A stretch of 64,000 nt of DNA, taken from NCBI GenBank assembly GCA_963755985.1, contig CAVWLO010000003.1, positions 678,537 through 742,536 of the forward strand, in the 5' to 3' direction. This DNA comes from an uncultured Acidimicrobiaceae bacterium. Lineage in GTDB: Bacteria; Actinomycetota; Acidimicrobiia; Acidimicrobiales; RAAP-2. The notes beneath the pieces are model-generated. The model saw nothing but the letters and a program-made list of their open reading frames with translations, was not told the origin of the DNA and did no database searches. Position 1 is the stretch's first letter, and the number at the start of each line of letters is the position of its first letter. The translations under genes and the position numbers were made by a program. Of this stretch, positions 5,935-61,112 are shown one piece after another.

Positions 5935-6222
5935 ATGGAGACAGAGTCGGGAACCGAAACGGACACCGAGGCTGGGACGGGCGTGGGGTCCGGCATCGGC
6001 CCGGTGTCTGACGAGGTGGTCCTCGACCCCGTCACGGGGGAGCCGGCCGATGTGGACTCGGTCGAGGCGTTGCTCGACGATGTGGACCGGGCCCTGGTCC
6101 GGCTCGATAACGGCAACTACGGACGGTGTGAGAGCTGCGGCACGATCATCGCCGACGACCGGCTGGCCGAGATCCCCACGGCACGGACGTGCGGGGGCTG
6201 CCTGCAAGCCGCCAACGGCTGA
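5935..6222 (+). CDS. TraR/DksA-family C4 zinc-finger protein
   Basis: It carries YGRCESCGTIIADDRLAEIPTARTCGGC (CxxC-N17-CxxC). ATG 5935 was chosen because the longer ORF start would overlap the divergent gene that begins at 5891. Confidence 0.75.
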   Translation: METESGTETDTEAGTGVGSGIGPVSDEVVLDPVTGEPADVDSVEALLDDVDRALVRLDNGNYGRCESCGTIIADDRLAEIPTARTCGGCLQAANG

Positions 6223-6260
6223 ACGGCCACGTCTGGTCGGCTGAACGGCCACGTCCGGTC
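6217..6260. repeat. 22-bp x2 tandem duplication spanning the stop codon of the DksA-like gene
   Basis: ggctgaacggccacgtctggtc is followed by ggctgaacggccacgtccggtc. The TGA at 6220-6222 is duplicated at 6242-6244. Confidence 0.9.
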
Positions 6261-6511
6261 GTGGCTCGGCGCCGTAGGCCGGGGCACTTCGGACCCCATG
6301 TGGCCCGCTGATTGGGCCGACTTCTGGCCCGGTTCGGCCCACCTCCCCACCTCAGGCCAGATAACTCGACCGACTTCTGGCCGAGCCATGGGGTCCGGCG
6401 AACTGGTGACCCGACGAGGGAGCTGGCGGCCAAACGCACTGGATCTTGTGGGCTGGCTGCGGACGGATGCGCGTAAACGCACCGTCTGCACGTCAGGTCG
6501 GGTAACGACTA

Positions 6512-7539
6512 GATGACGTAATTCCAAGGGATCCTCAATGGTCATATGCGACGAGGGATCGCAATGGAGCCACACCAGAGTGGTGGTTGTGCCAGATAGC
6601 AGCGGTGAGGGCGAGGAGTCGTTGGAGCACTCTGGTGACGACGCCGCCAGGCGTGCGTCCACCATGTCGTTCCAGGTCGAGCTGGCCTTTCAGGGTGTCG
6701 TTGACCGATTCGATGAGGGGCTTCAAGAAGCGTGCGCCGGGGCGTGGCGGCTCCCCGGCTCGTGCCGGCCGAATCAATCGTGCGTCGTGGCCGGCCAGGA
6801 ACGACTCGAACTCAGCCGAGGCGTAGCCCTTGTCGGCCAGGATCACCTGCCCGGGATGGATCAGCCCGGGCTCGATCTCGAAGAGGTCCCGAGCGACCTC
6901 GCGTTCGTCCATCTTGGCGTTGGCCAGAGCGAACGTGATGGGGAGCCCAGCCGGCGTGCACACCAGGTGGAGCCGAAGGCCCCAGAAGTAGCGGGAGTGG
7001 CTGGCGCAGTAGCCATAGCCGGCGAACCCGACCAGATCGCTCCGCTTCGCTGTCGGGCGCGACCGCCCACCCTCCACCGGCGTCGAGTCGATGACCCAGG
7101 TGTCATCGTCAAAGAGGTCGGTATCGGTGGCCAGTACCCGGATCATGCTGTTGAGCAGGGATTGCGCTTTCCGGAGCCGTTTGTTGTAGCCGGGCTGGTG
7201 GGGCACGTAGGGGAAAAGGGAACGCAGATGCTTCCGGGCATGTCGGAGGAATCGCGTCTCGGAGGTGAACCCGAGCAACGCGTGGATCACGGCCATGGTG
7301 ATCAGCTCCGCGTCACTCAACTCGGGGGCGATGCCAACTTCGGGCCGCCAGATCCCAAGCGACGGGTTGGTCGCCAGCTCGTCGTCGATCTTCACGTACA
7401 GTGCGGTAACGAAGGTGTCCATATCGGCGTCCACAAGACCTCCAAGGTTGGCGTGGCTATTGAGCAACGCCGATCATGGACGCCTTCGTCGCGTAAGTCG
7501 TGGACCCCACATCCTGGGGACCCCTTGGAATCAGTGATC
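6512..7539 (-). mobile_element. IS982-family insertion sequence, apparently complete
   Basis: About 1.03 kb with a single transposase ORF. The imperfect terminal inverted repeats have core ATTCCAAGGGATCC at 6521-6534 versus the reverse complement of 7518-7531, ATTCCAAGGGGTCC. Weaker matches may extend the repeats to 6512 and 7539. No clear target-site duplication is seen. Confidence 0.7.
6535..7467 (-). CDS. IS982-family DDE transposase
   Basis: 310 aa with TALYVKIDD, LSDAELITMAVIHALLGFTSETRFLRHA, QPGYNKRLRK, VIDSTPVE, GYCASHSRYFWGLRLHLV, ADKGY and SVNDTLKGQLDLERHGGRT. Confidence 0.85.
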   Translation of the reverse strand: MLNSHANLGGLVDADMDTFVTALYVKIDDELATNPSLGIWRPEVGIAPELSDAELITMAVIHALLGFTSETRFLRHARKHLRSLFPYVPHQPGYNKRLRKAQSLLNSMIRVLATDTDLFDDDTWVIDSTPVEGGRSRPTAKRSDLVGFAGYGYCASHSRYFWGLRLHLVCTPAGLPITFALANAKMDEREVARDLFEIEPGLIHPGQVILADKGYASAEFESFLAGHDARLIRPARAGEPPRPGARFLKPLIESVNDTLKGQLDLERHGGRTPGGVVTRVLQRLLALTAAIWHNHHSGVAPLRSLVAYDH

Positions 7540-7544
7540 TAGCG

Positions 7545-7961
7545 CTATTTCTTGGTTTCCCAGAAAATCGTGGCGATCTCGTCGATCTGGTCGAGCAGGC
7601 GCTGGCCTACAGCGGCGTCGTTCCCCTTCTTGGCCTCGCCTGCCGTCTTGGTCGCCTTCCAAAACAGGTCGTGGAGCTGGGGGTACTTCTCAAGGTGCTC
7701 GGGCTTGAAGTAGTCCGTCCACAGCACCCAGAGGTGGTGCTTCACCAGGTCGGCCCGCTCCTCTTTGATGATCGTGGCCCGTGTGCGGAAGACGTCATCT
7801 TTTGAGTCGTTGAACTTGTCGATCGTGTTCTTGACCGACTCCGCCTCGATGCGGGCCTGCGCGGGGTCGTACACGCCGCACGGGAGGTCGCAGTGGGCGT
7901 AGGCCTCACTGGGTGGGCTCAACCGGTCGAGGGTGGCAAGCAGGCGGTCAACAGTACGCAT
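7545..7961 (-). CDS. sodN: nickel superoxide dismutase precursor
   Basis: A pro-peptide is followed by the Ni-hook HCDLPCGVYDP. The rest is collinear with Streptomyces SodN, up to FWETKK at the C-terminus. Confidence 0.95.
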   Translation of the reverse strand: MRTVDRLLATLDRLSPPSEAYAHCDLPCGVYDPAQARIEAESVKNTIDKFNDSKDDVFRTRATIIKEERADLVKHHLWVLWTDYFKPEHLEKYPQLHDLFWKATKTAGEAKKGNDAAVGQRLLDQIDEIATIFWETKK

Positions 7962-8026
7962 GAGCAGGACTCCTTTGGTGCAGAGTGGGGGACGATGCTG
8001 GTGCGGACCACCTTATCGAGCTTCGT

Positions 8027-8608
8027 ATGAGAATGGCCCAGCTCAGCTCATGTACCCCGCCGCGGGTGCCGGGAACCACGCCGGCGACCACAGCGGTGAC
8101 GACAGCGGTGATCAACACTGGAGGCAACACCCGAACGGCGGCCCGGTTCCCTGTCGCCAGCGCGGAGGCCCGGTTCGCCCTCGCCGGCGGGCCGACCCGG
8201 TTCGCCGTCGCCGGTGCGGCGGCCCTCGTCGGCCTGGCGTACCTGGGGGCCCGACTGATCACCCGGGTGGAGGTGGTGGGCATGTCGATGGCGCCGGCAC
8301 TGCTCCCCGGCGACCGCCTCCTCGTGTTGCGGTGGCCGAGGCTGGTGGCACCGTTGCCCCTACCGGGGGATGTGGTCGCCCTCCGCGATCCCCGTTTTCC
8401 GGCTCGAGTCCTGGTCAAACGGGTGGGAACCGTCAATCGGCACGCCGGAACGCTGGAGGTACTGGGCGACGACCCCTCGGCCAGCACCGACAGCCGCAGC
8501 TTCGGGCCCGTTTCCCGCTGGCTGGTGGTGGGCAAGGCCATCTATCGCTATGCGCCCCAGGGCCGAGTGGCCAGGGGTCCTTGGCCCCCCGGGCTACGAT
8601 CCCTCTAG
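8027..8608 (+). CDS. sodX: S26-family signal peptidase, NiSOD maturation protease
   Basis: It is divergent from sodN. It carries VVGMSMAPALLPGDRLLV (catalytic Ser), LVKRV and LGDDPSASTDSRSFGPV. The start is uncertain: the ORF opens at 7985 (GTG), and ATG 8027 was chosen. Confidence 0.75.
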   Translation: MRMAQLSSCTPPRVPGTTPATTAVTTAVINTGGNTRTAARFPVASAEARFALAGGPTRFAVAGAAALVGLAYLGARLITRVEVVGMSMAPALLPGDRLLVLRWPRLVAPLPLPGDVVALRDPRFPARVLVKRVGTVNRHAGTLEVLGDDPSASTDSRSFGPVSRWLVVGKAIYRYAPQGRVARGPWPPGLRSL

Positions 8609-8673: not shown

Positions 8674-9189
8674 ATGAAGGACCCGCCACGGACGGAGAGT
8701 ACGCAGTTCGTCAAGGAGCTGCCTGAGCGCTTCAACGAGCTGGGCTCATTCATCCGGGAGCAGCGCAGCACAGCGCGGCTGTCGCTCCGCCGCCTGTCCG
8801 AACTGGCCGGCATCTCCAACCCGTACCTCAGCCAGATCGAGCGGGGATTGCGGCGGCCGTCGGCAGAGATCCTGCAACAGATCGCCAAGGCGTTGCGCAT
8901 CTCGGCCGAGACGCTCTACGTCCAGGCTGGGATCCTGGAGAAGCCCGACGGCAATACTGACCTGGCCCGGCACATCCTCGCTGATCACAACCTCACCGAG
9001 GATCAGAAGCAAGCGTTGATGCGCATCTACCTGTCGTTCCGGCACGAGAACGAGGACGCCAGCCCGAACGCCGACCCCGACACTGATGCAAACGGTGATG
9101 CGGCCGGGGAACGTGCCGACCGAGTCGCGGGCTCTGGTTCCGACCCGGCCGGGGGGTCCCGCACCCACGGGGCCCCATCTCGCGCATAG
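8674..9189 (+). CDS. XRE-family helix-turn-helix transcriptional regulator
   Basis: Only the last third of ORF 7933..9189 looks coding. The RBS ggaaggaaag precedes ATG 8674. The HTH is LSLRRLSELAGISNPYLSQIERGLRRPSAEILQQIAKAL. Confidence 0.75.
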   Translation: MKDPPRTESTQFVKELPERFNELGSFIREQRSTARLSLRRLSELAGISNPYLSQIERGLRRPSAEILQQIAKALRISAETLYVQAGILEKPDGNTDLARHILADHNLTEDQKQALMRIYLSFRHENEDASPNADPDTDANGDAAGERADRVAGSGSDPAGGSRTHGAPSRA

Positions 9190-9360
9190 GGCCGGATCCC
9201 GCACCCACGGCCCGATCTCGGGCCCGCCGGGCCAGACCCCGCTCCGACGGGGCCGGATCCCGCACCCACGGGGCCAGACCCCCGCCCGCCGGGCCGGATG
9301 CCGTTCCCGGCCAGACCCCGCTCCCGCCCGGGCCAGATCCCGTGCCGATAGGGCCGGCCC
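9155..9360. repeat. complex degenerate repeat block across the 3' end of the XRE gene and the mshA upstream region
   Basis: gg(t/a)tcccgcacccacgg occurs 3 times (about 9155, 9194 and 9254). It is interleaved with 4 copies of gggccaga(c/t)ccc-type units. Confidence 0.7.
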
Positions 9361-11220: not shown

Positions 11221-11263
11221 CCGGTCCTCCCACCGACTGCTCGGGCATCGGCGGGCTGGCCAG

Positions 11264-11330
11264 CCGGCCCTCGGTCGTGGCCACCGGCCCTCGGTCGTCG
11301 CCACCCGGCCCTCGGTCGTCGCCACCCGGC
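11264..11330. repeat. 20/21-bp x3 tandem repeat in the YbjN-proC intergenic region
   Basis: The unit is ccggccctcggtcgt(g/c)gccac. Confidence 0.9.
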
Positions 11331-12467: not shown

Positions 12468-12579
12468 GTCCCGCCTGGTCAGGACCTGACTGGGGTCCCG
12501 CCTGGTCTGGTCTCGCCTGGTCCGGCATCCAGCGCGATCTCGCCTGGTCCGGTTGCGCGTACGGTCCCGCGTGGTCCGG
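12468..12579. repeat. degenerate ~27-bp repeat block upstream of the DUF62 gene
   Basis: gtc(c/t)cgc(c/g)tggtc(cgg) occurs at about 12468, 12495, 12510, 12537 and 12564. Confidence 0.75.
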
Positions 12580-12650
12580 CGCCGAGCACGGGTCGGGAGC
12601 CGGCCGTCTACTTCCTGTCCGACTATGGGCTGGTCGACGAGTTCGCCGGT

Positions 12651-13559
12651 GTGGTCCATGCCGTCGTCCAGCGCCTGGCGCCAGGCGTGCCGGTCATCGA
12701 CCTGACTCATCAGGTCCCCCCTTTCGACGTGGCCGCCGGCGCCAGGGTCCTGGAGCGTGCCCTTCCGCACCTGGGCCAGGGCGTGGTCCTCGCCGTCGTC
12801 GACCCCGGTGTCGGCTCCGATCGCCGGGGCGTGGCCGTCGAACTGGACACCGGGACCGGTCCGCGCTGGATGGTCGGCCCGGACAACGGTCTGCTGCTCC
12901 CTGCCGCCGGCCTCCTCAGGGGCCCCCGCCGAGCCGTCGTCCTCGACGGTGTCTCCACTTTCGACGGCCGGGACGTCTTCGCCCCTGCCGCCGCCCATCT
13001 GGTCGGGGGCGGCCGACCCGAGGCCCTGGGCCGGGAGGCCGAGGTAGGCACGTTGGTGGCCCTACCTGATCGCCGCCCCGAGGCCTCGGTAAGCGATGGT
13101 GTTGTGAGCACGTGGGTGACATGGGTGGACGGATACGGGAACGTCCAGCTTGCCGGCTCGTGCGGCAAGTGGGAGGAAGCGGGGGTTGTCCTTGGTACGA
13201 CGGCGCTGATCGGGCTGCGCCCGTCGCCCGGCGGCGGTCGGGACAGCGCTCGCGAGGTGCCCGCTCAGCCGGTGCCGGCTCGGCCGATGCCTGCTGATCC
13301 GGTCCCCGATCGCCACGTGCCTGCTGACCCGGTCCCCGATCGCCACGTGCCTGCTGACCCGGTCCCCGCTCGCCGCGGTCCGGCTGGCCCGGTGCCCGCT
13401 CGGCGCGTGCCGGCCTTCTCATCGCTGGCCCCCGGCGAGTTCGGCCTGGTCGTCGACTCCAACGGTCACCACGCCCTCGTCCTTGACCGGGACTCGGCCG
13501 CATCGAGGTTGGGCGACCCCGTTCCCGGCACCAGGCTGTGGGTGCGCCTGGACGAGTGA
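12651..13559 (+). CDS. SAM hydrolase / SAM-dependent halogenase family protein (DUF62); start codon unresolved
   Basis: It carries VIDLTHQVPPFDV, LAVVDPGVGS and GPDNGLL. The conserved N-terminal strand VYFLSDYGLVDEFAGV lies upstream of the first canonical start (GTG 12651), in an open frame without ATG, GTG or TTG back to the stop at 12270. It also contains an in-frame 30-bp x5 insertion. Confidence 0.7.
   Translation: MVHAVVQRLAPGVPVIDLTHQVPPFDVAAGARVLERALPHLGQGVVLAVVDPGVGSDRRGVAVELDTGTGPRWMVGPDNGLLLPAAGLLRGPRRAVVLDGVSTFDGRDVFAPAAAHLVGGGRPEALGREAEVGTLVALPDRRPEASVSDGVVSTWVTWVDGYGNVQLAGSCGKWEEAGVVLGTTALIGLRPSPGGGRDSAREVPAQPVPARPMPADPVPDRHVPADPVPDRHVPADPVPARRGPAGPVPARRVPAFSSLAPGEFGLVVDSNGHHALVLDRDSAASRLGDPVPGTRLWVRLDE
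13261..13410 (+). repeat. 30-bp x5 in-frame tandem repeat inside the DUF62 gene
   Basis: The unit is ctgctgacccggtccccgatcgccacgtgc, encoding PADPVPDRHV. The central copies are near-perfect and the outer ones degenerate. Confidence 0.9.
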
Positions 13560-15992: not shown

Positions 15993-17086
15993 GTGCCTTC
16001 CCGGCCGCAGCTTCGGCTGGCCACACGCCGGTCCCCGTTGGCTCTCTGGCAGGCCCGACGGGTCGCCGAACTGGTGGCCGAGCGGTACCAGGGCGCCGAA
16101 GTCGCCCCGGAGGTGACGCTGGTCACCGTGGATACCGCGGGCGACAGGAACACCGATGTCCCACTGCACTCCCTTGGCGGTCAGGGCGTCTTTGTAAAGG
16201 AGGTCCAGGCTGCCGTCCTCCGGGGCGAGGCCGACGCCGCGGTGCACTCGGCCAAGGACTTGCCGGCCGCGCTCGGCCTCTCGCCTGAAGGACTGGTCCT
16301 GGGCGCGTTCCCCGAACGGGCCGATCCCCGGGACCTCCTGGTCGGCCAGCACTTGGACGACCTAGCCGCCGGCTCCACCGTGGCCACCGGATCGGTGCGG
16401 CGACGCACACAACTGGCCAACCTCCGGCCCGATCTCACATTCGTGGACGTCCGTGGGAACCTTGGGACCCGGCTGGCCGCTGTCGGCCAGAACGGCCTGG
16501 TCGCCGTGGTGGTGGCCAAGGCGGGAGTGGACCGGTTGGGCTGGCAACCGCCTGACGGCATCCACACCGAGGCGCTCGGCACGTTGCTGATGGTGCCCCA
16601 GGTCGGGCAGGGCGCGCTGGCTGTCGAGTGTCGGGCCGACGACGACCGTACGAGGGCTGCCCTGGCCGGCATCGACGACTCCGTCGTCCGCCTGGCGGTC
16701 ACCGCCGAGCGCGCTTATCTGGCTGAGCTCGGGGGCAGCTGCACATTGCCGGTCGGCGCCTACGCTGAGGCGGCGTCCGGCGAGGAGTCGGAGGCGTCCG
16801 GCGAGGAGTCGGAGGCGTCCAGCGAGCAGTCGGAGGGGGTAGGGCCCGGCCAGAGCGGGCAGAGCGGCCAGAGCGGCCAGAGCGGGCAGGCTGGTCGTGG
16901 CCGCCTGCTGTTGACCGCCGTTCTGGCCAGCGAGGACGGTCGGGTGGTGCTGCGCCACTCGGCGCGGGGCGAGGATCCCGGGCAGCTGGGCCGGGACGTG
17001 GCCCGGACGTTGCTCGATGACTGCGGGGGCACCTCGCTCGGGCCCTGGGGCGACGGCGAGGGCACCGGCACAGGGGGGCCGGCGTT

Positions 17087-18864: not shown

Positions 18865-18907
18865 CCGGTGATGGGCGTAGTCGACCGGAGTGGGGACGTC
18901 GGGTCCG

Positions 18908-18960
18908 GGCAGGGACGACAGGCCGGACAGGGAACATGGGCCGGACAGGGACGACAGGTA
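18908..18960. repeat. 18/36-bp repeat in the hemD-hemB spacer
   Basis: ggccggacaggga occurs twice and cagggacgacagg occurs twice. Confidence 0.75.
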
Positions 18961-21335: not shown

Positions 21336-21503
21336 CCCAACGGACTCAACGACTGATTGCGCTATGGACACAACAGGTTAAGGGGTTGTCCGGGTGCGCT
21401 GACGTAGTCGGTCGGACAAGTGGCTGGCCGGGCGGCGCTTCACGTGCTGTCCGCGGGGATCCGGCCCGGCGGCCGCCTCCGGCCCCCGGTGGCGGCCTCC
21501 GGC

Positions 21504-21545
21504 CTTGCCGGCTCTGACAGTTACACTTGCCGGCTCTGACAGTTA
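21504..21545. repeat. 22-bp-period x2 duplication including the stop codon of the HNH gene
   Basis: cttgccggctctgacagtta occurs at 21504-21523 and again at 21526-21545. Confidence 0.9.
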
Positions 21546-21555
21546 GAAGAGCCGG
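21530..21555. terminator. candidate hairpin between the convergent hemL and HNH genes
   Basis: ccggctct (21530-21537) pairs with agagccgg (21548-21555) around a 10-nt loop. There is no U-tract, so the function is uncertain. Confidence 0.25.
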
Positions 21556-23129: not shown

Positions 23130-23197
23130 ATGGAGAGCCTGACAGATGGGTGTATCAGTCACTAAGAGCACATGTAACACCACTGAATGCAACAGAG

Positions 23198-23320
23198 CAG
23201 CTCGTCGGCGGACACAGACCAGCTCGTCGGCGGACACAGACCAGCTCGTCGGCGGACACAGACCAGCTCGTCGGAGGACACAGGGCATCTCGTCGAAGGA
23301 CACAGAGGAGCTGGTGGAAG
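23198..23320. repeat. 22-bp x5-6 tandem array in the divergent HNH / methyltransferase promoter region
   Basis: The unit is cagctcgtcggcggacacagac, with 3 perfect copies followed by progressively degenerate ones. Confidence 0.9.
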
Positions 23321-24330: not shown

Positions 24331-25815
24331 ATGACGGGGCCCGGGACCCTCGGGGAGCGACCGTCGGCGGACCCGACAGGGTTGAGCGGCTTTCGACTCG
24401 ACGGCGTCTCGCTCATCGCCGTTGCGGGTGATGGACCCGAGACGGTCGACGGGTTGACACTGTTGCTCGACGCCATCGGCTTCGTCATCGTGGGGCCTAC
24501 GGCGGGCGCGTCGCGGCGCGTCGAATGGTCGGCGGTGGCCGGTGTCGAGGTGGGCTTGGTGGTGTCGGGAACCGACGGAGGCATCGCCACCCCGCTCGAT
24601 GTGAGCTCTGCGGGCAAGACGGTCCGGTTCATGCTTCCGGCCAGCCGGGTGTCCCCGGCGCAGGTTTCACTGCTCGAGCGCCGGCTGGTCCAGTGGAAGG
24701 CGCCAGCAGGTCGAGACGGAGGCGCGGCCCCGGGCACGGCGATGCCCTTTCCGTCCTCTGCGCCCAACTCGATGGCCGGGCCTGCGCCCAACCAGACGCC
24801 TTCGATGGGCTCGTGGCCTGCGCCCAACCAGACGCCTTCGATGGGCTCGTGGCCTGCGCCCAACCAGACGCCTTCGATGGGCTCGTGGCCACGGCCGGCC
24901 GAGAGGCTCGGACCGGCGTACGGCCGCCCCACTATGGGCCCGGTCGGGTCAGTATGGCCGATACAACCGGTCGACCACCTTGTCGAGCACTCCCGGCGTC
25001 GCCGGCACAAGGTCATGGGCATGTCACTGTCGCTGCTACTCGTCCTGGCCGGTGTTGGACTCTGGGTCGGCCTGGCCAACACTGGCCAGCCGCCGAGGTC
25101 GACGACCTCGACAACTCGACCATCGGCCGACCAACAGCTCGCTCGGAACACCATGCTGTCTCAGACCGACCTCCCGTCCGGATGGCAGATCTCCCCAGGA
25201 GGATCAGGTGGTACCAGCGCGGCCGACCGGAAGGCCGAGCGCCAAATCGCCGCCGTGTTCCAGAAGTGCATGGGCGTCACCGCCGATCAGGCCACGACGG
25301 CCCTCGGCGGCCAGAGCGCGGACCAGACGGCACAGGCCCAGTCGCCGATCTTCGTCGGGCCGGCGGCGGGGTCCGCCTCCGGCGCAGCCACGGAGCTGCA
25401 GTCGACATCCGCGGTGGTCCGCACGCATGCCGACGAGACGAACGACTACGCGGTCTATGCCAACCCCCATTACCCCCAGTGCAATGCCTCGGCGAGCGCG
25501 GCCGAGGCCCAGATCGGCGTAAACGACACCAGCGGAAGCCACGATAAACCAGGGCCGGCCGAGGGCCACATGGTGTCGATCCCGCCGTTCCCCGGCGAGC
25601 AGGTCCTCGAGGTTGAGTCGACGTTCACGCTGAACACGGGAGGCCAGGCCATAGTGGTGCAGGACTATCAGGTTCTTGTGGCGGGCGACCGGGTCGAGGC
25701 CTCGTTGGGCGCCTTCGCCGTGGGGACGGTGTTCCCGACGGACGTGCTCTCCACCTCTGCCTCGACGCTCGAGCACCGGGTTGCATCGGTTGGACCGGGA
25801 AAGGGCGCAGCTTGA
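24331..25815 (+). CDS. hypothetical single-pass membrane protein, paralog A
   Basis: 494 aa. It has an N-terminal ~130-aa domain, a Pro-rich repeat linker and the TM segment MGMSLSLLLVLAGVGLWVGLA. The extracytoplasmic domain has two Cys (FQKCMGV, YPQCNAS). Confidence 0.6.
   Translation: MTGPGTLGERPSADPTGLSGFRLDGVSLIAVAGDGPETVDGLTLLLDAIGFVIVGPTAGASRRVEWSAVAGVEVGLVVSGTDGGIATPLDVSSAGKTVRFMLPASRVSPAQVSLLERRLVQWKAPAGRDGGAAPGTAMPFPSSAPNSMAGPAPNQTPSMGSWPAPNQTPSMGSWPAPNQTPSMGSWPRPAERLGPAYGRPTMGPVGSVWPIQPVDHLVEHSRRRRHKVMGMSLSLLLVLAGVGLWVGLANTGQPPRSTTSTTRPSADQQLARNTMLSQTDLPSGWQISPGGSGGTSAADRKAERQIAAVFQKCMGVTADQATTALGGQSADQTAQAQSPIFVGPAAGSASGAATELQSTSAVVRTHADETNDYAVYANPHYPQCNASASAAEAQIGVNDTSGSHDKPGPAEGHMVSIPPFPGEQVLEVESTFTLNTGGQAIVVQDYQVLVAGDRVEASLGAFAVGTVFPTDVLSTSASTLEHRVASVGPGKGAA
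24781..24888 (+). repeat. 36-bp x3 perfect in-frame tandem repeat in paralog A
   Basis: The unit is cctgcgcccaaccagacgccttcgatgggctcgtgg, encoding PAPNQTPSMGSW. Confidence 0.95.
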
Positions 25816-27324: not shown

Positions 27325-27478
27325 CCCAGATGAGCCGGAACAGCGCCTGGCCAGATGTTCCGGAGCGGCGCCGGCCAGATGATCCGGAGCGGCGCCGGCC
27401 AGATGATCCGGAGCGGGGCCGGCCAGATGATCCGGAGCGGCGCCGGCCAGATGATCCGGAGCGGCGCCTGGCCAGATC
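27325..27478. repeat. 24-bp x6 tandem array in a convergent intergenic region
   Basis: The unit is ccagatgatccggagcggcgccgg. Confidence 0.95.
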
Positions 27479-28843: not shown

Positions 28844-28850
28844 ATGGTCG

Positions 28851-28932
28851 TCGGCCGGGAGCACGTGGTCTCGGCCGGGAGCACGTGGTGTCGGCCGGGA
28901 GCACGTGGTCGTCGGCCGGGACCACGTGGACA
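28851..28932. repeat. 20/21-bp x4 tandem array in the divergent region between the reductase gene and nuoA
   Basis: The unit is tcggccgggagcacgtggt(c/g). Confidence 0.9.
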
Positions 28933-39546: not shown

Positions 39547-40358
39547 TGCTCTCGTTCGTGAACGGGGCCCCGCTGGCCCCGCTGGCCGCCACCCACGCCT
39601 CGTGGGTTGATATCGGCACGTTCGCAGTAGCTGCGGCCATCGTCCTGGCTGGAGCCATCGGGGTGGTCATCGCCCGGAACCCGGTCCACGCCGCCTTGAT
39701 GTTGGTCATGACGCTGTTCGGGATCGCGGTGCTCTTCGTGGCCCAGCGGGCCGACTTCCTGGCCGCCGTGCAGGTCATCGTCTATGCCGGCGCCATCGTG
39801 GTGTTGTTCCTCTTCGTCATCATGTTCCTGGGGGTGGACAAGACCGAGAGCGTGAAGGCCGAGCCCCTCCGCGGCCAGCGCCCCCTGGCTGTGGCCCTGA
39901 CGGCGCTGGGCCTGGCCGGCGTGCTCATCTTGGGCCTCGTCTCCCACTGGACCACGGGCAAGGCCTCGGTGGCCGGGGCGGCCAACGGCCCCGGCAGCAA
40001 TGTGGCCAAGTTGGGTCGGTCGGTGTTCACCACCTACCTGTTCCCCTTCGAAGTGACGTCCGCCCTGCTGGTCATTGCCGTGGTCGGCGCCGTCGTCCTG
40101 GCTCGCCGCCCTCCGACATCGAGCGGCGGGACGCCCGAGCCGATCGACGCGACCACCGACGCCGACCGGCCCAGCGGCGACCGCCGCGATCCGGCCACCG
40201 GCGACCCGATTGGTGACTCGACTGGTGCCGGCGACCCAACCACCGGTGGCGGCGACCCGCCCAGCCGGGCCGACGTCCCGCCCAGCCGGGCCGGCGTTCC
40301 GGCCAGCAGGGCCAGCGATTCGCCTACTGAGACCGTCGACGAGGAGGTGGCACCGTGA
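39546..40358 (+). CDS. nuoJ: NADH-quinone oxidoreductase subunit J
   Basis: It has ND6-like TM helices ([25 protein letters not shown]). A Pro/Asp-rich C-terminal tail of about 90 aa follows. Confidence 0.88.
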
Positions 40359-40660: not shown

Positions 40661-40668
40661 CCGGGCCG

Positions 40669-45883: not shown

Positions 45884-45918
45884 GGTAGCCGTCGCCCTAA
45901 GATCCGCGCCGTGGCAAG

Positions 45919-45975
45919 GAGCGTGGTCGTGGGCAAAGAGCGTGGTCGTGGGCAAGGAGCGTGGTCGTGGCTGAG
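45919..45975. repeat. 19-bp x3 tandem repeat whose third copy carries the start codon of the next gene
   Basis: The unit is gagcgtggtcgtgggcaa(a/g). Confidence 0.9.
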
Positions 45976-50209: not shown

Positions 50210-52157
50210 TCACCGTCGGGGCTCGTAGCGCAACTGGGGAGGTCGGTTGCTCCCACAGACTCCGGGTCGGACGCTCCGTTGGATGCCGGGTCTGACGCTC
50301 CGTTGGAGGTCGGGTCGGGCGCGGTGTTGGCCTCGCCCTGTCGCTCGGCGATGGCCTGGTCCGTCTCCCGCCGGGCCGCCTGCATCCGCTTCTCGGCCCC
50401 GACGGCCAGGAGGCGACCGAGGACCGGGATCTCCCACAGGGACTCGGCCCGGAGGATGGCCATGATGACGGGCACCAGATGCTCGGCCGTATCGAAGGCC
50501 ACGTAGCGCGGGAGCCAGTCGGGGTCGTACTTTGCGTTGAACCGCCACAGCGTCTCGATCTGGGCGAAGCTCGACACCCGCTTGAGGAACCACCGCTCCG
50601 CCCGTTGCACGGTGCCGTCGCCCTTCTCGCCGGCCAGGGTCGACCGGAGGGCGGCGAAGTTGAGGCTGAGGCCGCCGTAGCCACCGGACTTGAGGTGCTC
50701 GATGGTGGAGCACAGGGCGAAGTCCAGCAGCCCGTTGGGGTGTTCGCCGGGATCTCGGCGCATGAGATCGAGGGAGTAGCCGTTGATGCCCGTGGCCGGG
50801 ACGAACTGGCACATGGCCGCCGGACTTCCGTCGGGGCCGTGGACCACCGCCAGGAGCAGACCCTGGTCTCGGGGATCGAAGATGCGGCCCAACATCATGG
50901 AGAACCCGCGCTCTTGGTCGCCCCGACGACTGAGCCCCATCAGCGAGATGAGCTCGGCGGCCATCTTCATGGTCGAGTCGGGACGGGTCATGGAAAGTGG
51001 CTGTATAGCCGTACTTCTTGATCCGGTTGTGGGCCTGGCGCAGTCCCTTCTTGCCCCCGCCGGCCAGCGAGAAGTTCTGAACGTCCACGACGGCTTCGTC
51101 GCCGATGTACACGTTGTGCATCCCCGACTCGCGGTAAATGGGTAGCCAGTCCTCGCCGGCACCCATGATGGCCGGCACCCAACCGTGGTCGTCGGCAAAG
51201 CGTCGGAAGGCGCCCCACACCTGCTCGCGCTCGTTGCGCGGTCCGATGGGGTCGGGGGCGATGAGGCAGATGCCCCCGTAGATGGCGTAGGCCACCAGGC
51301 TGTCCCGAAAGAAGAACCACTGCTTGTCGGAGCGAAGGGCGAAGTAGTCGAGCGTGCTCCGCCCGTGCCGCCGCACGATGTCCCGGGCCCGGAATTCGGC
51401 AGCCCGACCTGTCGTCAGGCGCCGGTCCACTACCGGGCGGGAGAGGAGGAACAGGGCCACGCCGACCAAGGTGATGCCGATGACCAGCAGGCTTGGGGAG
51501 AAGAATCGGTCGAATCGGTTGGGCAGAGCCACGGTGCGGATCCCGATGAGACGCTCCGACGCGGCATGGAACGCCTGGCCCCACGAGATGTGGAACCGAT
51601 GGTACCGGCTGAAGTGGGCGGAGATCTCGATGGACGCGGCGGCGACGACGATGATGGTCACGGCTCCGCCCACCAGGGCCACGATGGCCGACCGCAGCGA
51701 GGACCAGTCCGAGGCGGCCTGGAATTCACGGCGGTTGACGAGCAGGACGATCAGGACGGCCAGGGCGAACAATGACTCCTCGATGTCGCCCCCGGCCAGC
51801 AGGTGCAAGAACAAGGTGACGGTGAGCAGCGTGACGCAGACCCGCCAGGCTCGGCGCTGACCTCGGAGCACGCCCCGGCCCAGAGCCAATAAGCCCATGC
51901 CGGCCAGGGCGACCAGCGCGCCGGCCAACTCCGAGGCCTGCAGCGGCAGCACCTCCAACACCACGTGCAGACCGGGCACGGAGGGGAGGGGTGATGGCGT
52001 CGAGGAGGTCGATCACCCCGGCCACCAGAATGGCGGCGGAAGCCAGGCGGCGCACCCGGCGGGTCCGGCGATGGGCTTGGCGCAGATCCGACGCCGGGGG
52101 CCACGATTCGCCTTTGGGGTACGAGGCCACCACGGTGGGATGCAGGCTGCGGACCAT
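50210..52157 (-). pseudogene. MprF-like phosphatidylglycerol lysyltransferase-domain (DUF2156) gene with multiple frame breaks
   Basis: Three collinear pieces lie in different frames. Piece 1 is MVRSLHP...AILVAGVIDLLDAITPPLRAR (ORF 51726..52178). Piece 2 is LHVVLEVLPLQ...NRIKKYGYTATFHDPS (ORF 50210..51979). Piece 3 is STMKMAAELISLMGLSRRGDQERGFSMMLGRIFDP...LPRYVAF (ORF 49786..51198). The breaks are near 51971 and 50985. A third break may lie in the 24-bp repeat tail. Confidence 0.65.
50262..50309. repeat. 24-bp x2 tandem repeat in the tail of the MprF-like gene
   Basis: The unit is ccgggtc(g/t)gacgctccgttgga(t/g)g, encoding SNGASDP(A/E) on the minus strand. Confidence 0.85.
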
Positions 52158-53583: not shown

Positions 53584-53919
53584 CCCTCAATCGTAGAGTT
53601 CTCGTGGCGTTAGGCTCGCCTACACACTTAGAGAACCCTGAACCAGCACGAAACGTGCGGTCAACGAGCAGAAACTACCGGTGAAAAGGTGAATCGCTGA
53701 TGGATGGGTCGGAGGGGGCTGGGGCGGCCCAGGCCGGTAGGCCGCAGGCCTGGGCAGCGCAAGACGGGGTCGTGCTGGCTGCGATAGCCCGAGGGGGCCG
53801 AGGGGGCCGAGGGGCACCGCGCCGGCCGGCGCCGCTGGACCGGCCGTCCACGGGGCAAATCGAGGCCGTAGCCCCGGGATCGGGCTCGACCGAATCCGGC
53901 CCGCCTCCACGGATCAGGG

Positions 53920-54408: not shown

Positions 54409-54448
54409 CGCTGCACAGGTACGACGATTGATCCTCTGGAGGTGAGAC

Positions 54449-54506
54449 GACTCTTGCTCCGGAAGGCGACTCATACTCCGGAGATCCGACTCATTCTCGG
54501 AGATAC
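54449..54506. repeat. 19/20-bp x3 degenerate tandem repeat in a convergent intergenic region
   Basis: The unit is gactca(t/a)(a/t)ctc(c)ggagat(c/a)c. A separate 18-bp x2 repeat (caccgccggtgacgccg.) lies at 54535-54570. Confidence 0.8.
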
Positions 54507-54602
54507 GGGGCGTGACCACCGGGCCGTCTTCGCTCACCGCCGGTGACGCCGTCACCGCCGGTGACGCCGGTGACCTACGACGACGGTGAACAAACTTCCG
54601 TC

Positions 54603-56459
54603 CTACGGCTCGTATGGCGATCCTTTCCGGCGTTCTTCCCAGGCGAACATGATCCAGCCCCCGACGAATGCCAATCCGGCCAGGATCAGGATCGGGGCGT
54701 CGCCATAGCGGACGAAGAGTGTCTGCCCGGTCCGTCGGTCGAGGGTGGCCGTCAGCACTTGCTGCGCCCCGAGGGTGGAGCGACTGACCAGCTGACCCCG
54801 GTGGTCGACGACCGCGCTGAATCCGGTCGGTGCCGCCTGGAGCAGGTCGCGGCCCTGTTCCACTGCCTGGACCTCCGAGGCCGCGATCTCCTGGCTGGGC
54901 ACCTGGGCGGAGGCGTACGACGAGGCGTTGGTCGGGACGATGAGGAGCTGGGCACCTGCTCGGACCGAGGACCGCCCGCGCTCGGCGAAGAAGTCCTCAT
55001 AGGACACCAAGGTGCCCAGTGGGGCGGCCGGAGTCGGCATGAGGCCGGTGCCGCTGCCCGGGATGGCGTCGAGGGGAACCCCGGACAGGTCGGCCAGATG
55101 CTCGAAGAACCCCCGGTAGGGAACGTATTCGCCGAACGGTACCCGGTGGACCTTCTCGAATCGGGACACCAGATCGCCGTTCGGGCCCCAGGCCACTACC
55201 TCGTTGCGGAAGGCGGTCGACGACACGTCCTCGGTGACCCCGACGACCAAAGTGGTGTGCAACGTTCTGGCCAGCCCACTCAGCGAGGCCTCGGTCGCCG
55301 AGCCGTCGAGGGGTGAGGACAAGGCGACGACGTCCTCGGGCCACAGGACGAGTCGGGGCGCATGGCCGTGGTCGAGCTGCTGGAGGTGGGCGGTGGCTGC
55401 ACGCTGGGCAGCGAAGACGACGGCGGGACTCACCTGAGACTTCCTGAACCCGCGGACCCCACCTCCTTGGACCGCCGCCGCGGTAACCGTGCCTCGGGAT
55501 GGACCGCCGTCGGGGGCATGGTCGGCGACGATGGTGACGACGACCACCCCGACGAGGGCAACGGAGCCCGCCCGAGCGAGGGCCACGAGCCCCGTCGACA
55601 CTCGCGTAGCCGCGAAGGCGGCCTGGACCAGCCCGGCGACGGCCACACCTCCGGTGAAGACGGCGGCAGTCAGGAGGAGGGGTCCCCCCAATCGGGCCGC
55701 GCCGAGGACCGGACCTCCGGCCTGCCCCAGGAAGACGCCGCCCATGGGAAGGCCGCCGAAGGGCCACGACATACGGGCTGCCTCGGCGAGGGTCATGGCC
55801 GCCGGGAAGGCCAGCGCCCGGGCCCCGATGAACCGGGGGGGCACGGCCAGGCAGGCCACGGCAGGGAACAGCGCTTCGATCACGATGAGGGCGATCGCAC
55901 CGGCGAGGGTGAACGAACGGGCCCACATGAGCCCAGGGACGAAGCAGCCGAGCCCGGCCAACCAACCGGACCACAAGCGGGCACGGGGCCGGAGGCCTTC
56001 CAAGCGCCACCACAGGAGTCCGGCCGCGGGAAAGGCCAGGATCCAGAACCCCCACGGAGGGAGGGAGAGGGCTAGCCCGACCCCGGAAAGGATCGACGGC
56101 ACCGCCACCCCACCGCGGCGGGGCGATCGGGGCCGTTCGTCGCCCTCGGTCGGTCCCGGCTGCTCGACCTGCGGGGGCTCAGGTTGGTCGTCCCACGGGG
56201 GCCCCCTTTTTCCGGCCTCGGGGAGCCCCGGTTGCTCACCTTCAGGGTTTCCTCTCTGCCCGGCCTCGGGGAGCCCCGGTTGCTCACGCTCACCCTCACC
56301 GTTTCCTCTCTGCACCCCCTCAGTGGTTCCTTGGTGGACCCCGCCCCCGGTGGCCGTGGATTCATCCGGTTGGGCGGGGCCCGCGCTCACGGGCTGTCCG
56401 GATGGCGACGGGACGTCCGGTGCCGGGCCACCGAGGCGGCCCGACTGGGGTGTGGTCAC
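54603..56459 (-). CDS. lnt: apolipoprotein N-acyltransferase with a ~125-aa low-complexity N-terminal extension
   Basis: It has multi-TM N-region LPPWGFWILAFPAAGLLWW and a CN-hydrolase domain with VLWPEDVV, KVHRVPFGEYVP, LVSYEDFF and IVPTNASSY. GTG 56459 overlaps the hemY stop. An internal start closer to the first TM helix is possible. Confidence 0.85.
   Translation of the reverse strand: MTTPQSGRLGGPAPDVPSPSGQPVSAGPAQPDESTATGGGVHQGTTEGVQRGNGEGEREQPGLPEAGQRGNPEGEQPGLPEAGKRGPPWDDQPEPPQVEQPGPTEGDERPRSPRRGGVAVPSILSGVGLALSLPPWGFWILAFPAAGLLWWRLEGLRPRARLWSGWLAGLGCFVPGLMWARSFTLAGAIALIVIEALFPAVACLAVPPRFIGARALAFPAAMTLAEAARMSWPFGGLPMGGVFLGQAGGPVLGAARLGGPLLLTAAVFTGGVAVAGLVQAAFAATRVSTGLVALARAGSVALVGVVVVTIVADHAPDGGPSRGTVTAAAVQGGGVRGFRKSQVSPAVVFAAQRAATAHLQQLDHGHAPRLVLWPEDVVALSSPLDGSATEASLSGLARTLHTTLVVGVTEDVSSTAFRNEVVAWGPNGDLVSRFEKVHRVPFGEYVPYRGFFEHLADLSGVPLDAIPGSGTGLMPTPAAPLGTLVSYEDFFAERGRSSVRAGAQLLIVPTNASSYASAQVPSQEIAASEVQAVEQGRDLLQAAPTGFSAVVDHRGQLVSRSTLGAQQVLTATLDRRTGQTLFVRYGDAPILILAGLAFVGGWIMFAWEERRKGSPYEP
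56213..56314. repeat. 48-bp x2 in-frame tandem repeat in the lnt N-terminal extension
   Basis: ccggcctcggggagccccggttgctcac occurs at 56213 and 56261, each followed by ...gtttcctctctgc. Confidence 0.9.
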
Positions 56460-58965: not shown

Positions 58966-60203
58966 CCCTCGACCTCGGCACTGCTCGCTTCGCCGCTCTC
59001 GGCACTGCCTCCCACGCCGCTCTCGACGCTGCCTCCCACGCCGCTCTCGACGCTGCTTCCGACGCCGCTCTCGACGCTGCTTCCGACGCCGCTCTCGACG
59101 CTGCTTCCGACGCCGCTCTCGACGCTGCCTCCGACGCCGCTCTCGACCCCGGCCCGGCCCTCTCGGTGGACCAGCTCGACCAGCTGCTCGAGGATGCCCG
59201 GATCGGTCTCGGGGAGCACGCCATGACCCAGGTTGAACACGTGTCCGGGCTCGACTCCGGTCCGGCTGAGGACGTCGCGGGCCTCATCGGCCACAACCTC
59301 CCACGGCGCCAGACACAGGACCGGATCCAGGTTGCCCTGGACAGCCAGGTGGGGCCCGATCCGACGGCGGGCGGCGTCGAGCGGCACGCGCCAGTCGACC
59401 CCGATGACGGTGGACCCGGCCATGGCCATCAATGGGAGCAACTCGCCCGTGCCCACGCCGAAGAGGATGGTGGGCACGTCGGGATGGGACCGGCCGAGCT
59501 GGGTGAAGAGGCGCCGGGTGGCGGGGAGGACGAACTCCTCGTAGTCACGGGGGGTGAGGATCCCGGCCCAGCTGTCGAAGACCTGGGCCGCGGAGGCGCC
59601 GGCGTCGAGCTGTGAGCGCAACGAGGCGACGGCCAGATCGGTCAATCGGTCGACCAGGCTGTGCCAGAGCTTCGGGTCGGTGTGCATGAGGGACTTGATC
59701 CTGGTGAAGTTCTTCGAGGGGCCGCCCTCGACCAGGTAGCTGCCGACGGTGAACGGGCCGCCGGCGAAGCCGATCAGCGGCACGGTGAGCTCGCCGGCCA
59801 GGATCCGAACGGCCTCGGCCACATACGGGGCGTCCGTCCCTGGGTCGAGCGGGCGCAGTCGCTCCAGATCGGCCGCCGAACGGAACGGCTGGTCGACCAC
59901 CGGGCCTACGCCGGGGGCGACGTCCACGCCGAAACCGATGGCGGCGACCGGGACGATGATGTCGGAGAAGAAGATGGCCGCGTCGGTGCCGTAGCGGCGG
60001 ACGGGCTGCTGAGTCAGCTCGGCCACCAGCTCGGGCTGGGCGATCGCCTCCAGGATGCTTCCGGGGCCCCTGGCCGCTAGGTACTCGGGGAGCGAGCGGC
60101 CGGCCTGCCGCATGAACCACACGGGCACGTGCGATGTCGGCTGGCGTCGGCATGCCCTGATGAACGGCGAGTCATCGTGATTGACGCGGGCGGGAGCGGG
60201 CAC
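58962..60203 (-). CDS. hemE: uroporphyrinogen decarboxylase with a repeat tail
   Basis: It carries PVWFMRQAGRSLPEY, FSDI, FAGGPFT and FNLGHGV. The C-terminal ~60 aa are VESGVG(S/G)S repeats. Confidence 0.92.
   Translation of the reverse strand: MPAPARVNHDDSPFIRACRRQPTSHVPVWFMRQAGRSLPEYLAARGPGSILEAIAQPELVAELTQQPVRRYGTDAAIFFSDIIVPVAAIGFGVDVAPGVGPVVDQPFRSAADLERLRPLDPGTDAPYVAEAVRILAGELTVPLIGFAGGPFTVGSYLVEGGPSKNFTRIKSLMHTDPKLWHSLVDRLTDLAVASLRSQLDAGASAAQVFDSWAGILTPRDYEEFVLPATRRLFTQLGRSHPDVPTILFGVGTGELLPLMAMAGSTVIGVDWRVPLDAARRRIGPHLAVQGNLDPVLCLAPWEVVADEARDVLSRTGVEPGHVFNLGHGVLPETDPGILEQLVELVHREGRAGVESGVGGSVESGVGSSVESGVGSSVESGVGSSVESGVGGSVESGVGGSAESGEASSAEVEG
58992..59154. repeat. 24-bp x6.5 in-frame tandem repeat at the 3' end of hemE, ending at the hemE/hemH overlap
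   Basis: The unit is gccgctctcgacgctgc(c/t)tcc(c/g)ac. Confidence 0.95.
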
Positions 60204-60393
60204 CCCCTGACGCTACCGCTGGGCCCGCGCCCCGGCGGAGTCGGCAACGGCCCCCCGACGGAGGTCCCGGCCGAGGGCCCCGGATGATCACGGTGCGAGT
60301 GGCGGCTGCGCTGGGGACAGCGACGTTCACCGCGGCCCGTGGGCGCACCGCCGTCACGGGGACCGGCTTGGACGGGCGGCCTCGCCGAGGGCG

Positions 60394-60399
60394 TAGAAT
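60394..60399 (+). promoter_or_regulatory. candidate -10 hexamer upstream of the helicase gene
   Basis: TAGAAT lies 47 nt before the GTG start. A hairpin tccccg(aagccggta)cgggga follows, then the RBS gaaggagg. No well-spaced -35 is present. Confidence 0.2.
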
Positions 60400-60726
60400 C
60401 GTAAGTTCCCCGAAGCCGGTACGGGGAGTTGCGAAGGAGGTGCCGGTGGGGGTCGAGCGCGAGCTGCAGGCAGAGCAGGAGTTCGTTGACCTGGCCTACG
60501 CGCGCCTCGACGCCATGCGCTCGGACGCCAACCGCATGCTCGAGGGGGTTCTCGACCTCGGCAAGGGCGGGACGTTCCAGTCCCGGACCGAGCGGGACGT
60601 GATCGTCCGAACCAGCCTGGCCCGGCTCGAGCAACTCGATATCGGCGATCAGGCCCTGACCTTTGGGCGGATCGACCGCGTGGTGGGCGACCAGAACGGT
60701 TCGGCCTCAGGAAACGGGGCTGACTC

Positions 60727-60795
60727 CGGCCCGACCCAATCAGGCCCGACCCGATCAGGCCGAGACCGAACCCGGCCCGACCGAGCCCGGCCGGG
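60727..60795 (+). repeat. 15-bp-period degenerate repeat insertion in the HelD-like gene at the frame break
   Basis: The sequence runs cggcccgacccaatcag / gcccgacccgatcag / gccgagaccgaaccc / ggcccgaccgagccc. Confidence 0.8.
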
Positions 60796-61022
60796 GCCCC
60801 GCCGACGAGCTGAGGACCGAGGTGTTCCACATCGGCAGGTTGGCGGTGCACGGCGCCGATCACGAGCCCCTGGTCGTCGACTGGCGGGCTCCGGTGGCTG
60901 AGCCCTTTTACCGGGCCACCGGACGTGATCCCCAGGGTCTCGTGCTCCGGCGTCATCTGGCCCTCGACGGCCGATCGGTGGTTGGGGTAGAGGACGAGTG
61001 GTTCGCCATTCCCGGCGGCGGT

Positions 61023-61112
61023 ACAGATGGGGCCCCCGCAGACGGGGCTGCCGCAGACGGGGCAGCCGCAGACGGGGCAGCCGCAGACGGGGCAGCCGCA
61101 GACGGGGGCCGG
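61023..61112 (+). repeat. 15-bp x6 in-frame tandem repeat in the HelD-like gene
   Basis: The unit is gcagacggggcagcc, encoding ADGAA. Confidence 0.95.

Follow-up and report, generated by a model that had tools for sequence, protein, structure and literature searches.

Minisatellite-type tandem-repeat arrays in a haem-synthesis and complex I region of an uncultured Acidimicrobiaceae bacterium

The window analysed here is a stretch of 64,000 nucleotides from an uncultured soil Acidimicrobiaceae bacterium (assembly GCA_963755985.1, contig CAVWLO010000003.1, positions 678,537 to 742,536 of the forward strand), and our subject is the set of short tandem-repeat arrays that it carries. By Pfam matches it holds a haem cluster (proC, DUF62, rex, hemA, hemC, cobA, hemD, hemB, hemL), a second, minus-strand haem block (hemE, ferrochelatase, protoporphyrinogen oxidase), the complex I genes nuoA-N at 29084-45883, and also lnt and a HelD-like helicase gene. 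A first-pass annotation, made from the letters of the window, had listed about 25 arrays in and between these genes.

Detection, position and frame of the arrays

Arrays were called with Tandem Repeats Finder (TRF) using match 2, mismatch 5 and indel 7, and arrays with a score of at least 80 are referred to as strong. A score of at least 30 gave 109 rows in the window. Merging at a score of at least 50 resulted in 36 arrays covering 3,110 bp, or 4.9% of the window, and 25 of the 36 were strong. Fifty shuffles preserving the dinucleotide composition gave 1.1 arrays at the lower threshold and 0.02 at the higher, and 50 shuffles with codons permuted inside 300-bp blocks gave 3.5 and 0.04, respectively. 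The number of arrays in the window is thus far above chance (36 and 25, against 1-3.5 and about 0.03 in shuffles).

Unit lengths range from 9 to 54 bp and copy numbers, as given by TRF, from 1.9 to 6.6, with up to about 14 in composite arrays. Head-to-tail series of a single unit of about 9-100 bp, at a frequency far above chance, are characteristic of minisatellites, and the arrays answer to this description. Between 15 and 18 of them are near-perfect, with at least 90% matches. Identical inner copies are flanked by decayed edge copies in the arrays at 13247, 23192, 27326 and 61024, in agreement with the earlier remark that perfect copies sit next to decayed ones. An array found by TRF or by repeat search is present at 24 of the 25 positions listed before. 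Position 14430 has no tandem array; one weak 33-bp x2 pair is found at 14535-14600 (76% identity), together with a 22-nt pair 180 bp apart. Arrays that had been overlooked include those at 8136, 16847, 32946, 39496, 40256 and 54534. The arrays are given below with strand, unit length, copy number and, in brackets, per cent matches.

6216..6261, no strand: 22 bp x2.1 (95%), over the stop of a DksA/TraR-type zinc-finger gene (5911-6222), remainder non-coding
8136..8225, plus: 27 bp x3.3 (77%, old), within the open reading frame of an S26 peptidase (SodX-like), in its N-terminal part and in frame
9149..9357, no strand: degenerate 20-21 bp with indels, about 10 copies, from the tail of an HTH_3 gene over its stop at 9189 towards the GT4 start (listed earlier at 9155)
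11259..11330, no strand: 21 bp x3.5 (94%, one indel), intergenic between a YbjN-like gene and proC
12468..12591, no strand: units of 15 and 27 bp, in the intergenic DNA that separates a small HTH_17 gene from DUF62
13247..13411, plus: 30 bp x5.5, in-frame PADPVPDRHV-type decapeptides in the DUF62 / SAM hydroxide adenosyltransferase, after its N-terminal domain in the inter-domain region
16772..16836, plus: 21 bp x3.1 (95%), SGEESEA repeats, loop of the HemC C-terminal domain, shortly past the conserved Cys and directly after the GAYAE strand
16847..16889, plus: 9 bp x4.8 (91%), GQS repeats, same HemC loop
17803..18022, plus: composite, Gly-rich, periods 15-42 bp, forming a CobA tail of about 75 amino acids, directly before the overlapping hemD start
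18893..18958, no strand: 18 bp x3.6 (75%), between hemD stop and hemB start
21465..21555, no strand: 20 bp x2.0 and 22 bp x1.9-2.2 (100%), convergent intergenic, hemL and DUF222 gene
23192..23306, no strand: 22 bp x5.2 (92%), divergent intergenic (promoter), DUF222 gene and methyltransferase-like gene
24779..24890, plus: 36 bp x3.1, perfect, PAPNQTPSMGSW x3, linker before the transmembrane helix of the membrane protein at 24331-25815
26225..26434, plus: 15/30 bp, PPAAA repeats, with older 18-36-bp periods, linker of the tandem paralogue at about 26040-27280
27326..27477, no strand: 24 bp x6.2 (92%), convergent intergenic, directly 3' of the stop of a geranylgeranyl-reductase-like (GGR-like) gene
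28840..28929, no strand: 20 bp x4.4 (91%), start codon and 5' region of the minus-strand GGR-like gene and region upstream of nuoA
30286..30320, no strand: 17 bp x2.1, over the nuoB stop codon
30339..30388, no strand: 15 bp x3.3 (97%), nuoB-nuoC spacer
32946..33094, plus: 18/54 bp, Ala/Glu/Lys-rich (older, 73%), NuoE C-terminal tail
33194..33257, plus: 21 bp x3.0 (97%), SHPEGTD x3, extreme C-terminus of NuoE
39422..39479, plus: 15 bp x3.9, perfect, PAPDS repeats, NuoI C-terminal tail
39496..39523, plus: 9 bp x3.1 (94%), DSA repeats, NuoI tail
40256..40313, plus: 21 bp x2.8 (89%), NuoJ C-terminal tail
45913..45970, plus: 19 bp x3.1 (94%), start of a second GGR-like gene (45961-47385)
50262..50322, minus: 24 bp x2.5 (86%), ASDPxSNG octapeptides, C-terminal tail of a DUF2156 / LPG_synthase_C gene
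53789..53814, no strand: 9 bp x2.9, perfect, upstream of the gene at 53920-54408
54448..54504, no strand: 19 bp x3.0 (82%), convergent intergenic, beside the lnt 3' end
54534..54574, no strand: 18 bp x2.0, perfect (alternatively 9 bp x4), same convergent intergenic region
56192..56287, no strand: 48 bp x2.0 (79%), upstream of lnt or in its N-terminal extension (LNT_N begins near 56087)
58991..59147, minus: 24 bp x6.6 (94%), VESGVGxS octapeptides, HemE C-terminal tail past the URO-D domain
60726..60792, no strand: 15 bp x3.6-4.4 (78%), first codons of the HelD-like helicase or sequence upstream of them
61024..61107, plus: 15 bp x5.6 (94%), DGAAA repeats, HelD-like helicase, N-terminal region ahead of the UvrD domain

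The arrays are specific to their loci, as had been stated in the first-pass annotation. In an all-against-all comparison of the unit consensuses the similarity was no better than for shuffled units, and no dispersed copies of any array unit were found within the window. Since the units are unrelated, undispersed and without spacers, the arrays are neither CRISPR arrays nor a dispersed family of the type of mycobacterial interspersed repetitive units (MIRU) or repetitive extragenic palindromic (REP) elements; the same observations argue against bacterial interspersed mosaic elements and satellites borne by miniature inverted-repeat transposable elements. The period equals the unit length, which leaves no spacer, and Pfam scans of the open reading frames of the window gave no Cas family. 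Structured or tRNA-derived repeats were also considered, and the sole Rfam or ARAGORN match was a tRNA-Lys at 2013-2086, far from every array.

For tests of position and frame, a gene map was made from third-position GC content, Pfam matches and the gene calls of relatives, and 37 arrays were tallied on it. Non-coding DNA makes up 9.6% of the window and holds 18 of the 37, a nine-fold enrichment per base (binomial p = 1.5e-9); arrays occupy 20% of non-coding and 3.2% of coding bases. The unit length is a multiple of three in 18 of 19 coding arrays, the exception being a doubtful 23-bp row with indels, and in 10 of 18 non-coding ones (Fisher p = 0.008), where the remaining units are of 17, 19, 20 or 22 bp. 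The rule that coding units are divisible by three, proposed before together with non-coding units of 19, 20 and 22 bp, therefore holds in all but this one row. It had likewise been claimed that arrays avoid enzyme cores, and every dynamic coding array does lie outside the cores defined by Pfam, in tails, linkers and loops. Start and stop junctions are also occupied: the stops of the dksA/traR-like gene (6216), the HTH gene (9149-9357) and nuoB (30286), and starts at 28840 and 45913. A filter on reading frame and position thus acts on the arrays. Weak TRF rows within conserved cores, at 29704 (nuoB), 38346 (nuoH) and 42230 (nuoL), have constant length in all relatives and are old internal similarity, not dynamic arrays.

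Array load and turnover among relatives

Among species representatives the nearest HemB relatives are uncultured Acidimicrobiales with at most 77% identity. For comparison we used loci consisting of hemB and 10 kb on each side; 69 of 80 such loci were at least 10 kb long, 1.31 Mb in total, and include long-read metagenome-assembled genomes (MAGs) of Acidimicrobiales as well as cultured Nocardia, Rhodococcus, Arthrobacter and Streptomyces. Labels beginning with L denote loci or contig regions of relatives and comparators matched to the window. The numbers of arrays per kb at TRF scores of at least 50 and at least 80 were as follows.

69 comparators, mean: 0.18 and 0.05
69 comparators, maximum: 0.54 and 0.24
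Window: 0.56 and 0.39

The excess is small for weak arrays and about seven-fold for strong or young arrays. With 0.39 strong arrays per kb the window exceeds all 69 comparator loci, high-GC ones included, so that the density is well above that of the related and of the other high-GC actinobacterial loci, as the first-pass annotation had supposed. In overlapping 21-kb chunks of the window, strong arrays number 4-12, against a comparator mean of 1.1. This internal comparison is the only quantitative one used here, as published array criteria differ: Burkholderia pseudomallei, called repeat-rich, has 70-102 arrays/Mb by its authors' own, different criteria (PMC1853098), and most bacteria have 0-3 satellites/Mb under criteria stricter than ours (PMC6749651). 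Our search of the literature found no report of tandem-repeat richness in Acidimicrobiia.

Closer relatives came from searches with the HemC and NuoI proteins, from scanning a metagenome and from looking up contigs.

L087: 98.7% identical to window 28638-49540 (21 kb) at the nucleotide level, an independent assembly from a different sample
L081 and L086: about 95% identity, short-read contigs
L085: about 90% identity, short-read
L083 and L088: 85-88% identity, two regions of one 638-kb contig (ERZ25039590 contig_24839)
L091 and L089: 87-90% identity, two regions of one 1.27-Mb contig (ERZ25039468 contig_42513)
L090: a strain that nearly matches L089, at 99.9% identity (28 mismatches in 21 kb)
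L084: about 86% identity, short-read contig
L082: about 80% identity

The genome of L083 and L088 carries 22 arrays in 42 kb, 19 of them strong, and that of L091 and L089 carries 18 in 42 kb, 9 of them strong. The excess therefore belongs to the whole genus-level clade, at several times the load of other Acidimicrobiales and high-GC actinobacteria.

Array lengths differ among the relatives, and the continuing turnover suggested earlier is borne out. Where the flanks of an array could be aligned to a relative, 19 of 22 arrays differed in length at 80-96% identity, often by whole units; the three of invariant length are the weak rows in NuoB, NuoH and NuoL. At about 95% identity (L081, L086) all three comparable arrays differ. 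The array at 23192 is 87 bp (about four 22-bp units) shorter in L081 and absent in L083. The one at 39422 is 45 bp (three 15-bp units) shorter in L086, whose NuoI tail has one PDS-type unit against four in the window and, nearby, a 24 bp x2.7 array of its own. At 24779, L081 has three diverged copies and lacks the degenerate fourth, and L083 is 172 bp shorter; the three perfect 36-bp copies of the window, set against the three diverged ones of L081, indicate homogenisation or re-expansion. Further on the haem side, L083 is shorter by 36 bp at 8136, by 102 bp at 12468 (L082 by 141 bp) and by 150 bp, or five 30-bp units, at 13247 (L084 by 105 bp). The CobA tail array is 201 bp shorter in L082, L083 and L084, and the HemC array at 16772 is absent in L082 and L083. 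On the complex I side, L085 is shorter by 67 bp at 28840, by 61 bp at 30339, by 42 bp at 33194 (two 21-bp units, leaving one copy) and by 26 bp at 45913 (one copy left), and is 24 bp longer in the NuoJ tail.

Sister genomes often hold different units at shared sites. In L083 these are 33 bp x3 at the HTH_3/GT4 junction, 20 bp x2 and 30 bp x4.3 at the ybjN/proC junction (112 bp longer than the window), 24 bp x5.2 between hemL and the DUF222 gene, and 33 bp x3.3 in the PPAAA linker at 26.3 kb. In L088 the nuoC N-terminus has 24 bp x3, the NuoJ tail 42 bp x2.2 and the DUF2156 tail 24 bp x4.1. The NuoE tails of L085, L088 and L089 have other arrays, of 45-51 bp, the NuoI tail is a further site of this kind, and the HemC loop carries unrelated repeat insertions in more distant Acidimicrobiales too. 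Relatives have a single unit copy at 33194, 45913 and 39422 and in the HemC loop. Because single copies are so often found, we conclude that the arrays grow by local duplication and arise from local sequence.

L087 differs from the window by 163 mismatches in 21 kb, and about eight arrays have the same period and copy number in both, including those at 28840, 30286, 30339, 33194, 40256 and 45913. The array at 39422, in an error-prone tail, was counted as 3.9 copies against 4.5 in L087. The lone indel cluster above 4 bp in these 21 kb is about 50 extra non-repetitive bp in L087 at the NuoG N-terminus (L087 5953-6028 against window 34575-34593). A single 12-bp unit (GCCGGCCGTGAT), bounded by a 7-nt direct repeat, distinguishes L089 from L090 at L089 15665, at the nuoM/nuoN junction. 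Since there is no change at 98.7% identity and change at about 95%, fixed length changes build up over roughly 1-5% divergence. Array turnover is much faster than point substitution per site, and orders of magnitude slower than at classical phase-variable loci or those of multiple-locus variable-number tandem-repeat analysis (MLVA).

Origin of the arrays and rival explanations

The explanation that we consider quite probable is that these are genuine minisatellite-type tandem arrays, present at an unusually heavy load across the clade, which stem from local duplication filtered by selection. An array would start with the local duplication, in tandem, of 9-50 bp already present in a chromosome of about 70% GC, with strand slippage or template switching in replication or repair as the likely mechanism of birth. 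Later expansion, contraction and homogenisation would probably proceed by slippage or unequal sister-strand exchange. Selection would then eliminate most duplications, and those surviving would be units that keep the frame, in disordered tails, linkers and surface loops, or units of any length in intergenic DNA, so that the same permissive sites would fill independently in sister lineages with unrelated units. What we infer here concerns the molecular mechanism of duplication and the cause of the excess, which may be more duplication or weaker removal. Thus, of the earlier proposal of an unusually high duplication rate filtered by selection, the filter on frame and position stands, and the high rate is one of two readings, as weaker purging fits too.

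A heritable bias of the clade towards tandem duplications of 10-50 bp, through altered processing of flaps or single-stranded DNA ends at the replisome or through end-joining of close nicks, is put forward tentatively. Duplication mutators, such as yeast rad27/FEN1 and Escherichia coli mutants in the Pol I 5'-nuclease or in single-stranded DNA exonucleases, and also end-joining of paired nicks, give tandem duplications of about 5-100 bp, often bounded by short direct repeats. They are mechanistic analogues only; the genes concerned lie outside the window, and junction microhomology is found here in only some of the young duplications. If the bias is real, about a fifth of the intergenic DNA would be continuously rewritten, core respiratory and haem-synthesis enzymes would receive new disordered tails and loops, and the clade would be a natural system for the de novo birth of bacterial protein sequence and regulatory DNA.

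Several points weigh against a clade-wide load from local duplication. The genome-wide excess is an extrapolation from 64 kb and from 42 kb in each of two sisters, always in hem and nuo neighbourhoods. The load is uneven, with only 5-6 arrays (1-2 strong) in the nuo region of L085, L089 and L090 and none in 11 kb of L082. Neither a lineage difference nor a short-read artefact explains the low nuo value of L085; the hem region of L091 is rich in arrays, and because the long-read L089 and L090 agree with the short-read L085, sequencing technology is not the cause. Clean two-copy births are few, and their junctions vary, with a 7-nt repeat in L089/L090, which slippage would predict, and blunt junctions at 54534 and at L083 5281. 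At a TRF score of at least 50, Streptomyces L080 (0.54/kb) and Rhodococcus L069 (0.51/kb) come near to the 0.56/kb of the window. These two loci also favour the view that the window is the upper tail of a normal distribution of low-complexity repeats in high-GC actinobacteria, of which the high-GC comparators average 0.20/kb at this threshold. We regard this ordinary background as distinctly unlikely, since for strong arrays no comparator reaches the window, each 21-kb chunk is well above the comparator mean, and two sister genomes have the same excess; the published densities quoted above, under their different criteria, point in the same direction.

Weak purifying selection, due to a small effective population size and tolerance of slightly harmful insertions instead of a higher duplication rate, is given a rather low probability as the cause. 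The window also carries an insertion sequence (IS) and two apparently frameshifted genes, and even HemC, DUF62 and subunits of complex I have accommodated insertions. However, the 15-18 near-perfect arrays are recent events and not a slow accumulation, the frameshifts are possibly sequencing errors, and the strict filter on multiples of three and on position shows selection at work. That errors in a long-read consensus created or inflated the arrays is extremely improbable, although the source is probably a long-read metagenome assembly, two window genes look frameshifted and the near-identical L087 shows many 1-2-bp indels. It is contradicted by L087 itself, an independent assembly of another sample with identical copy numbers, and by the arrays of the short-read contigs L081, L084 and L086. 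Decayed copies beside perfect ones, the maintained reading frame of coding arrays and the normal density of other Acidimicrobiales in long-read MAGs of comparable projects (L001, L002, L007 and others) also speak against it.

A selected function, as contingency loci, regulatory iterons or adaptively kept disordered tails, appears highly unlikely to us. In its favour, arrays in promoters and 5' regions at 23192, 28840 and 45913 have units of 19-22 bp, about two helical turns, one of them triplicates a ribosome-binding site and start codon, and the NuoE, NuoI and NuoJ tails recur in sister lineages. Against this, unit sequence and copy number are not conserved among relatives of 85-95% identity and showed no variation in L087 at about 99%, and the nine-fold enrichment in non-coding DNA fits mutational origin with purging from coding DNA. 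Contingency loci of Neisseria, Haemophilus and Campylobacter have 1-8-bp units, belong to surface or restriction genes that they switch on and off by frameshift or promoter spacing, and are variable inside a clone. The arrays here resemble them in repeat-driven length change near gene starts and within open reading frames, and differ in their 9-54-bp units, in frame in 18 of 19 coding arrays, in their housekeeping hosts (nuoE/I/J, hemC/E, cobA, DUF62 and helD, not surface, restriction-modification or host-interaction genes) and in copy numbers that were stable at 99% identity in L087. On/off switching is therefore not to be expected, frame-shift switching by long in-frame units being impossible. 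The first-pass annotation had seen many potential contingency or variable-number tandem-repeat (VNTR) loci; with about eight arrays constant in L087 (98.7% identity), and with unit and copy number lacking the conservation of a selected switch, we find no support for that view.

Further known systems are similar in part. Bacterial VNTR or minisatellite loci used in MLVA, as in B. pseudomallei and Mycobacterium tuberculosis, are likewise head-to-tail, locus-specific and of different length among relatives, with intragenic units mostly multiples of three and with intergenic enrichment (PMC1853098; PMC6749651). The B. pseudomallei units are of 6-9 bp, whereas most units here are of 15-48 bp, and our settings give a several-fold higher density. 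Near-clonal isolates differ at MLVA loci, and about eight of the arrays here are unchanged between the window and L087; MIRU-type VNTRs form a dispersed family, unlike these. Intragenic minisatellites of eukaryotic microbes, such as those of yeast cell-wall genes, and eukaryotic minisatellites in general share the 10-60-bp units, the homogenised inner and decayed edge copies, the coding for low-complexity, probably disordered peptide repeats and a fast-evolving repeat number. The present arrays differ in lying on a bacterial chromosome without meiotic recombination, in their short length of 50-220 bp and in being placed in core metabolic enzymes and not in surface adhesins.

Tandem arrays, the multiple-of-three rule and intergenic enrichment are already textbook knowledge; new are how heavy the load is in this uncultured lineage and that it lies in genes for complex I and haem synthesis. 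Should the load be genome-wide, it would amount to roughly 400-560 arrays/Mb, among the highest reported for a bacterium, and would lie in housekeeping operons instead of surface genes. The 85-90% identical sisters, which differ in load at matched loci and can all be had as long-read MAGs, offer a concrete comparison for what sets bacterial tandem-duplication rates. In practice, the arrays fragment short-read assemblies of the clade, make orthologue tails hypervariable inside one 90% cluster and, together with indel errors, can misdirect gene calling.

Host genes and neighbouring features

A small IS (6521-7531) separates the dksA-like gene from sodN; it has a DDE_Tnp_1 transposase and terminal inverted repeats of 17 nt, and is missing from the syntenic loci L083 and L091. 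We considered the 22-bp duplication at 6216 as its target-site duplication and rejected this, the terminal inverted repeats of the IS being at 6521 and 7531. HemC lengths of 309-354 amino acids within one 90% cluster are not strain-level variation of the loop, since the alignment shows N-terminal truncations, and they were left out of the evidence.

The DUF222 gene (21543-23129, minus strand; HNH-endonuclease-associated) has hemL on one side and the methyltransferase-like gene on the other. L083 has this gene too, there with two internal arrays (33 and 36 bp), and L082 lacks it. The membrane proteins at 24331-25815 and about 26040-27280 are tandem paralogues with no Pfam match. Both consist of a cytoplasmic domain, a repeat linker, a transmembrane helix and an extracellular domain, and their linker arrays differ. 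The short-read contig L081 ends at about window 26204, some 20 bp short of the composite array of 210 bp at 26225.

The GGR-like flavin adenine dinucleotide (FAD) oxidoreductase gene at 27502-28845 (minus strand) has a +1 frameshift near 28130, with an extra T between ...DIRDSD and GKVVPGYGWIFP, which may be either a real pseudogene or a long-read indel error. In front of the second GGR-like gene, the array at 45913 triplicates the ribosome-binding site (AAGGAG) and the GTG start, of which only the last copy is in frame; this may influence translation initiation. In the DUF2156 / LPG_synthase_C gene (50210-51979, minus strand) the frame changes near 50970, mid-gene, and the 3' reading frame is open for 340 bp into the convergent neighbour gene. 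In L088, a 29 bp x3.1 array at 6872-6961 inside nuoG lies exactly at the split of the gene call, which may be an array-associated frameshift or an assembly error.

NuoI (38560-39546) and its relatives have a conserved C-terminal extension of about 100 amino acids (SPSGSAAYEGQVQWSGDLGYGVR...KRGPRGAIGRMIEKAERF) ahead of the hypervariable tail. One protein, P0284, encoded on a 1.23-Mb contig, is 100% identical to the NuoI of the window. Listed NuoI lengths within one 90% cluster are 284-347 amino acids, part of which possibly reflects truncated gene calls, and the full-length aligned members differ in their tails.

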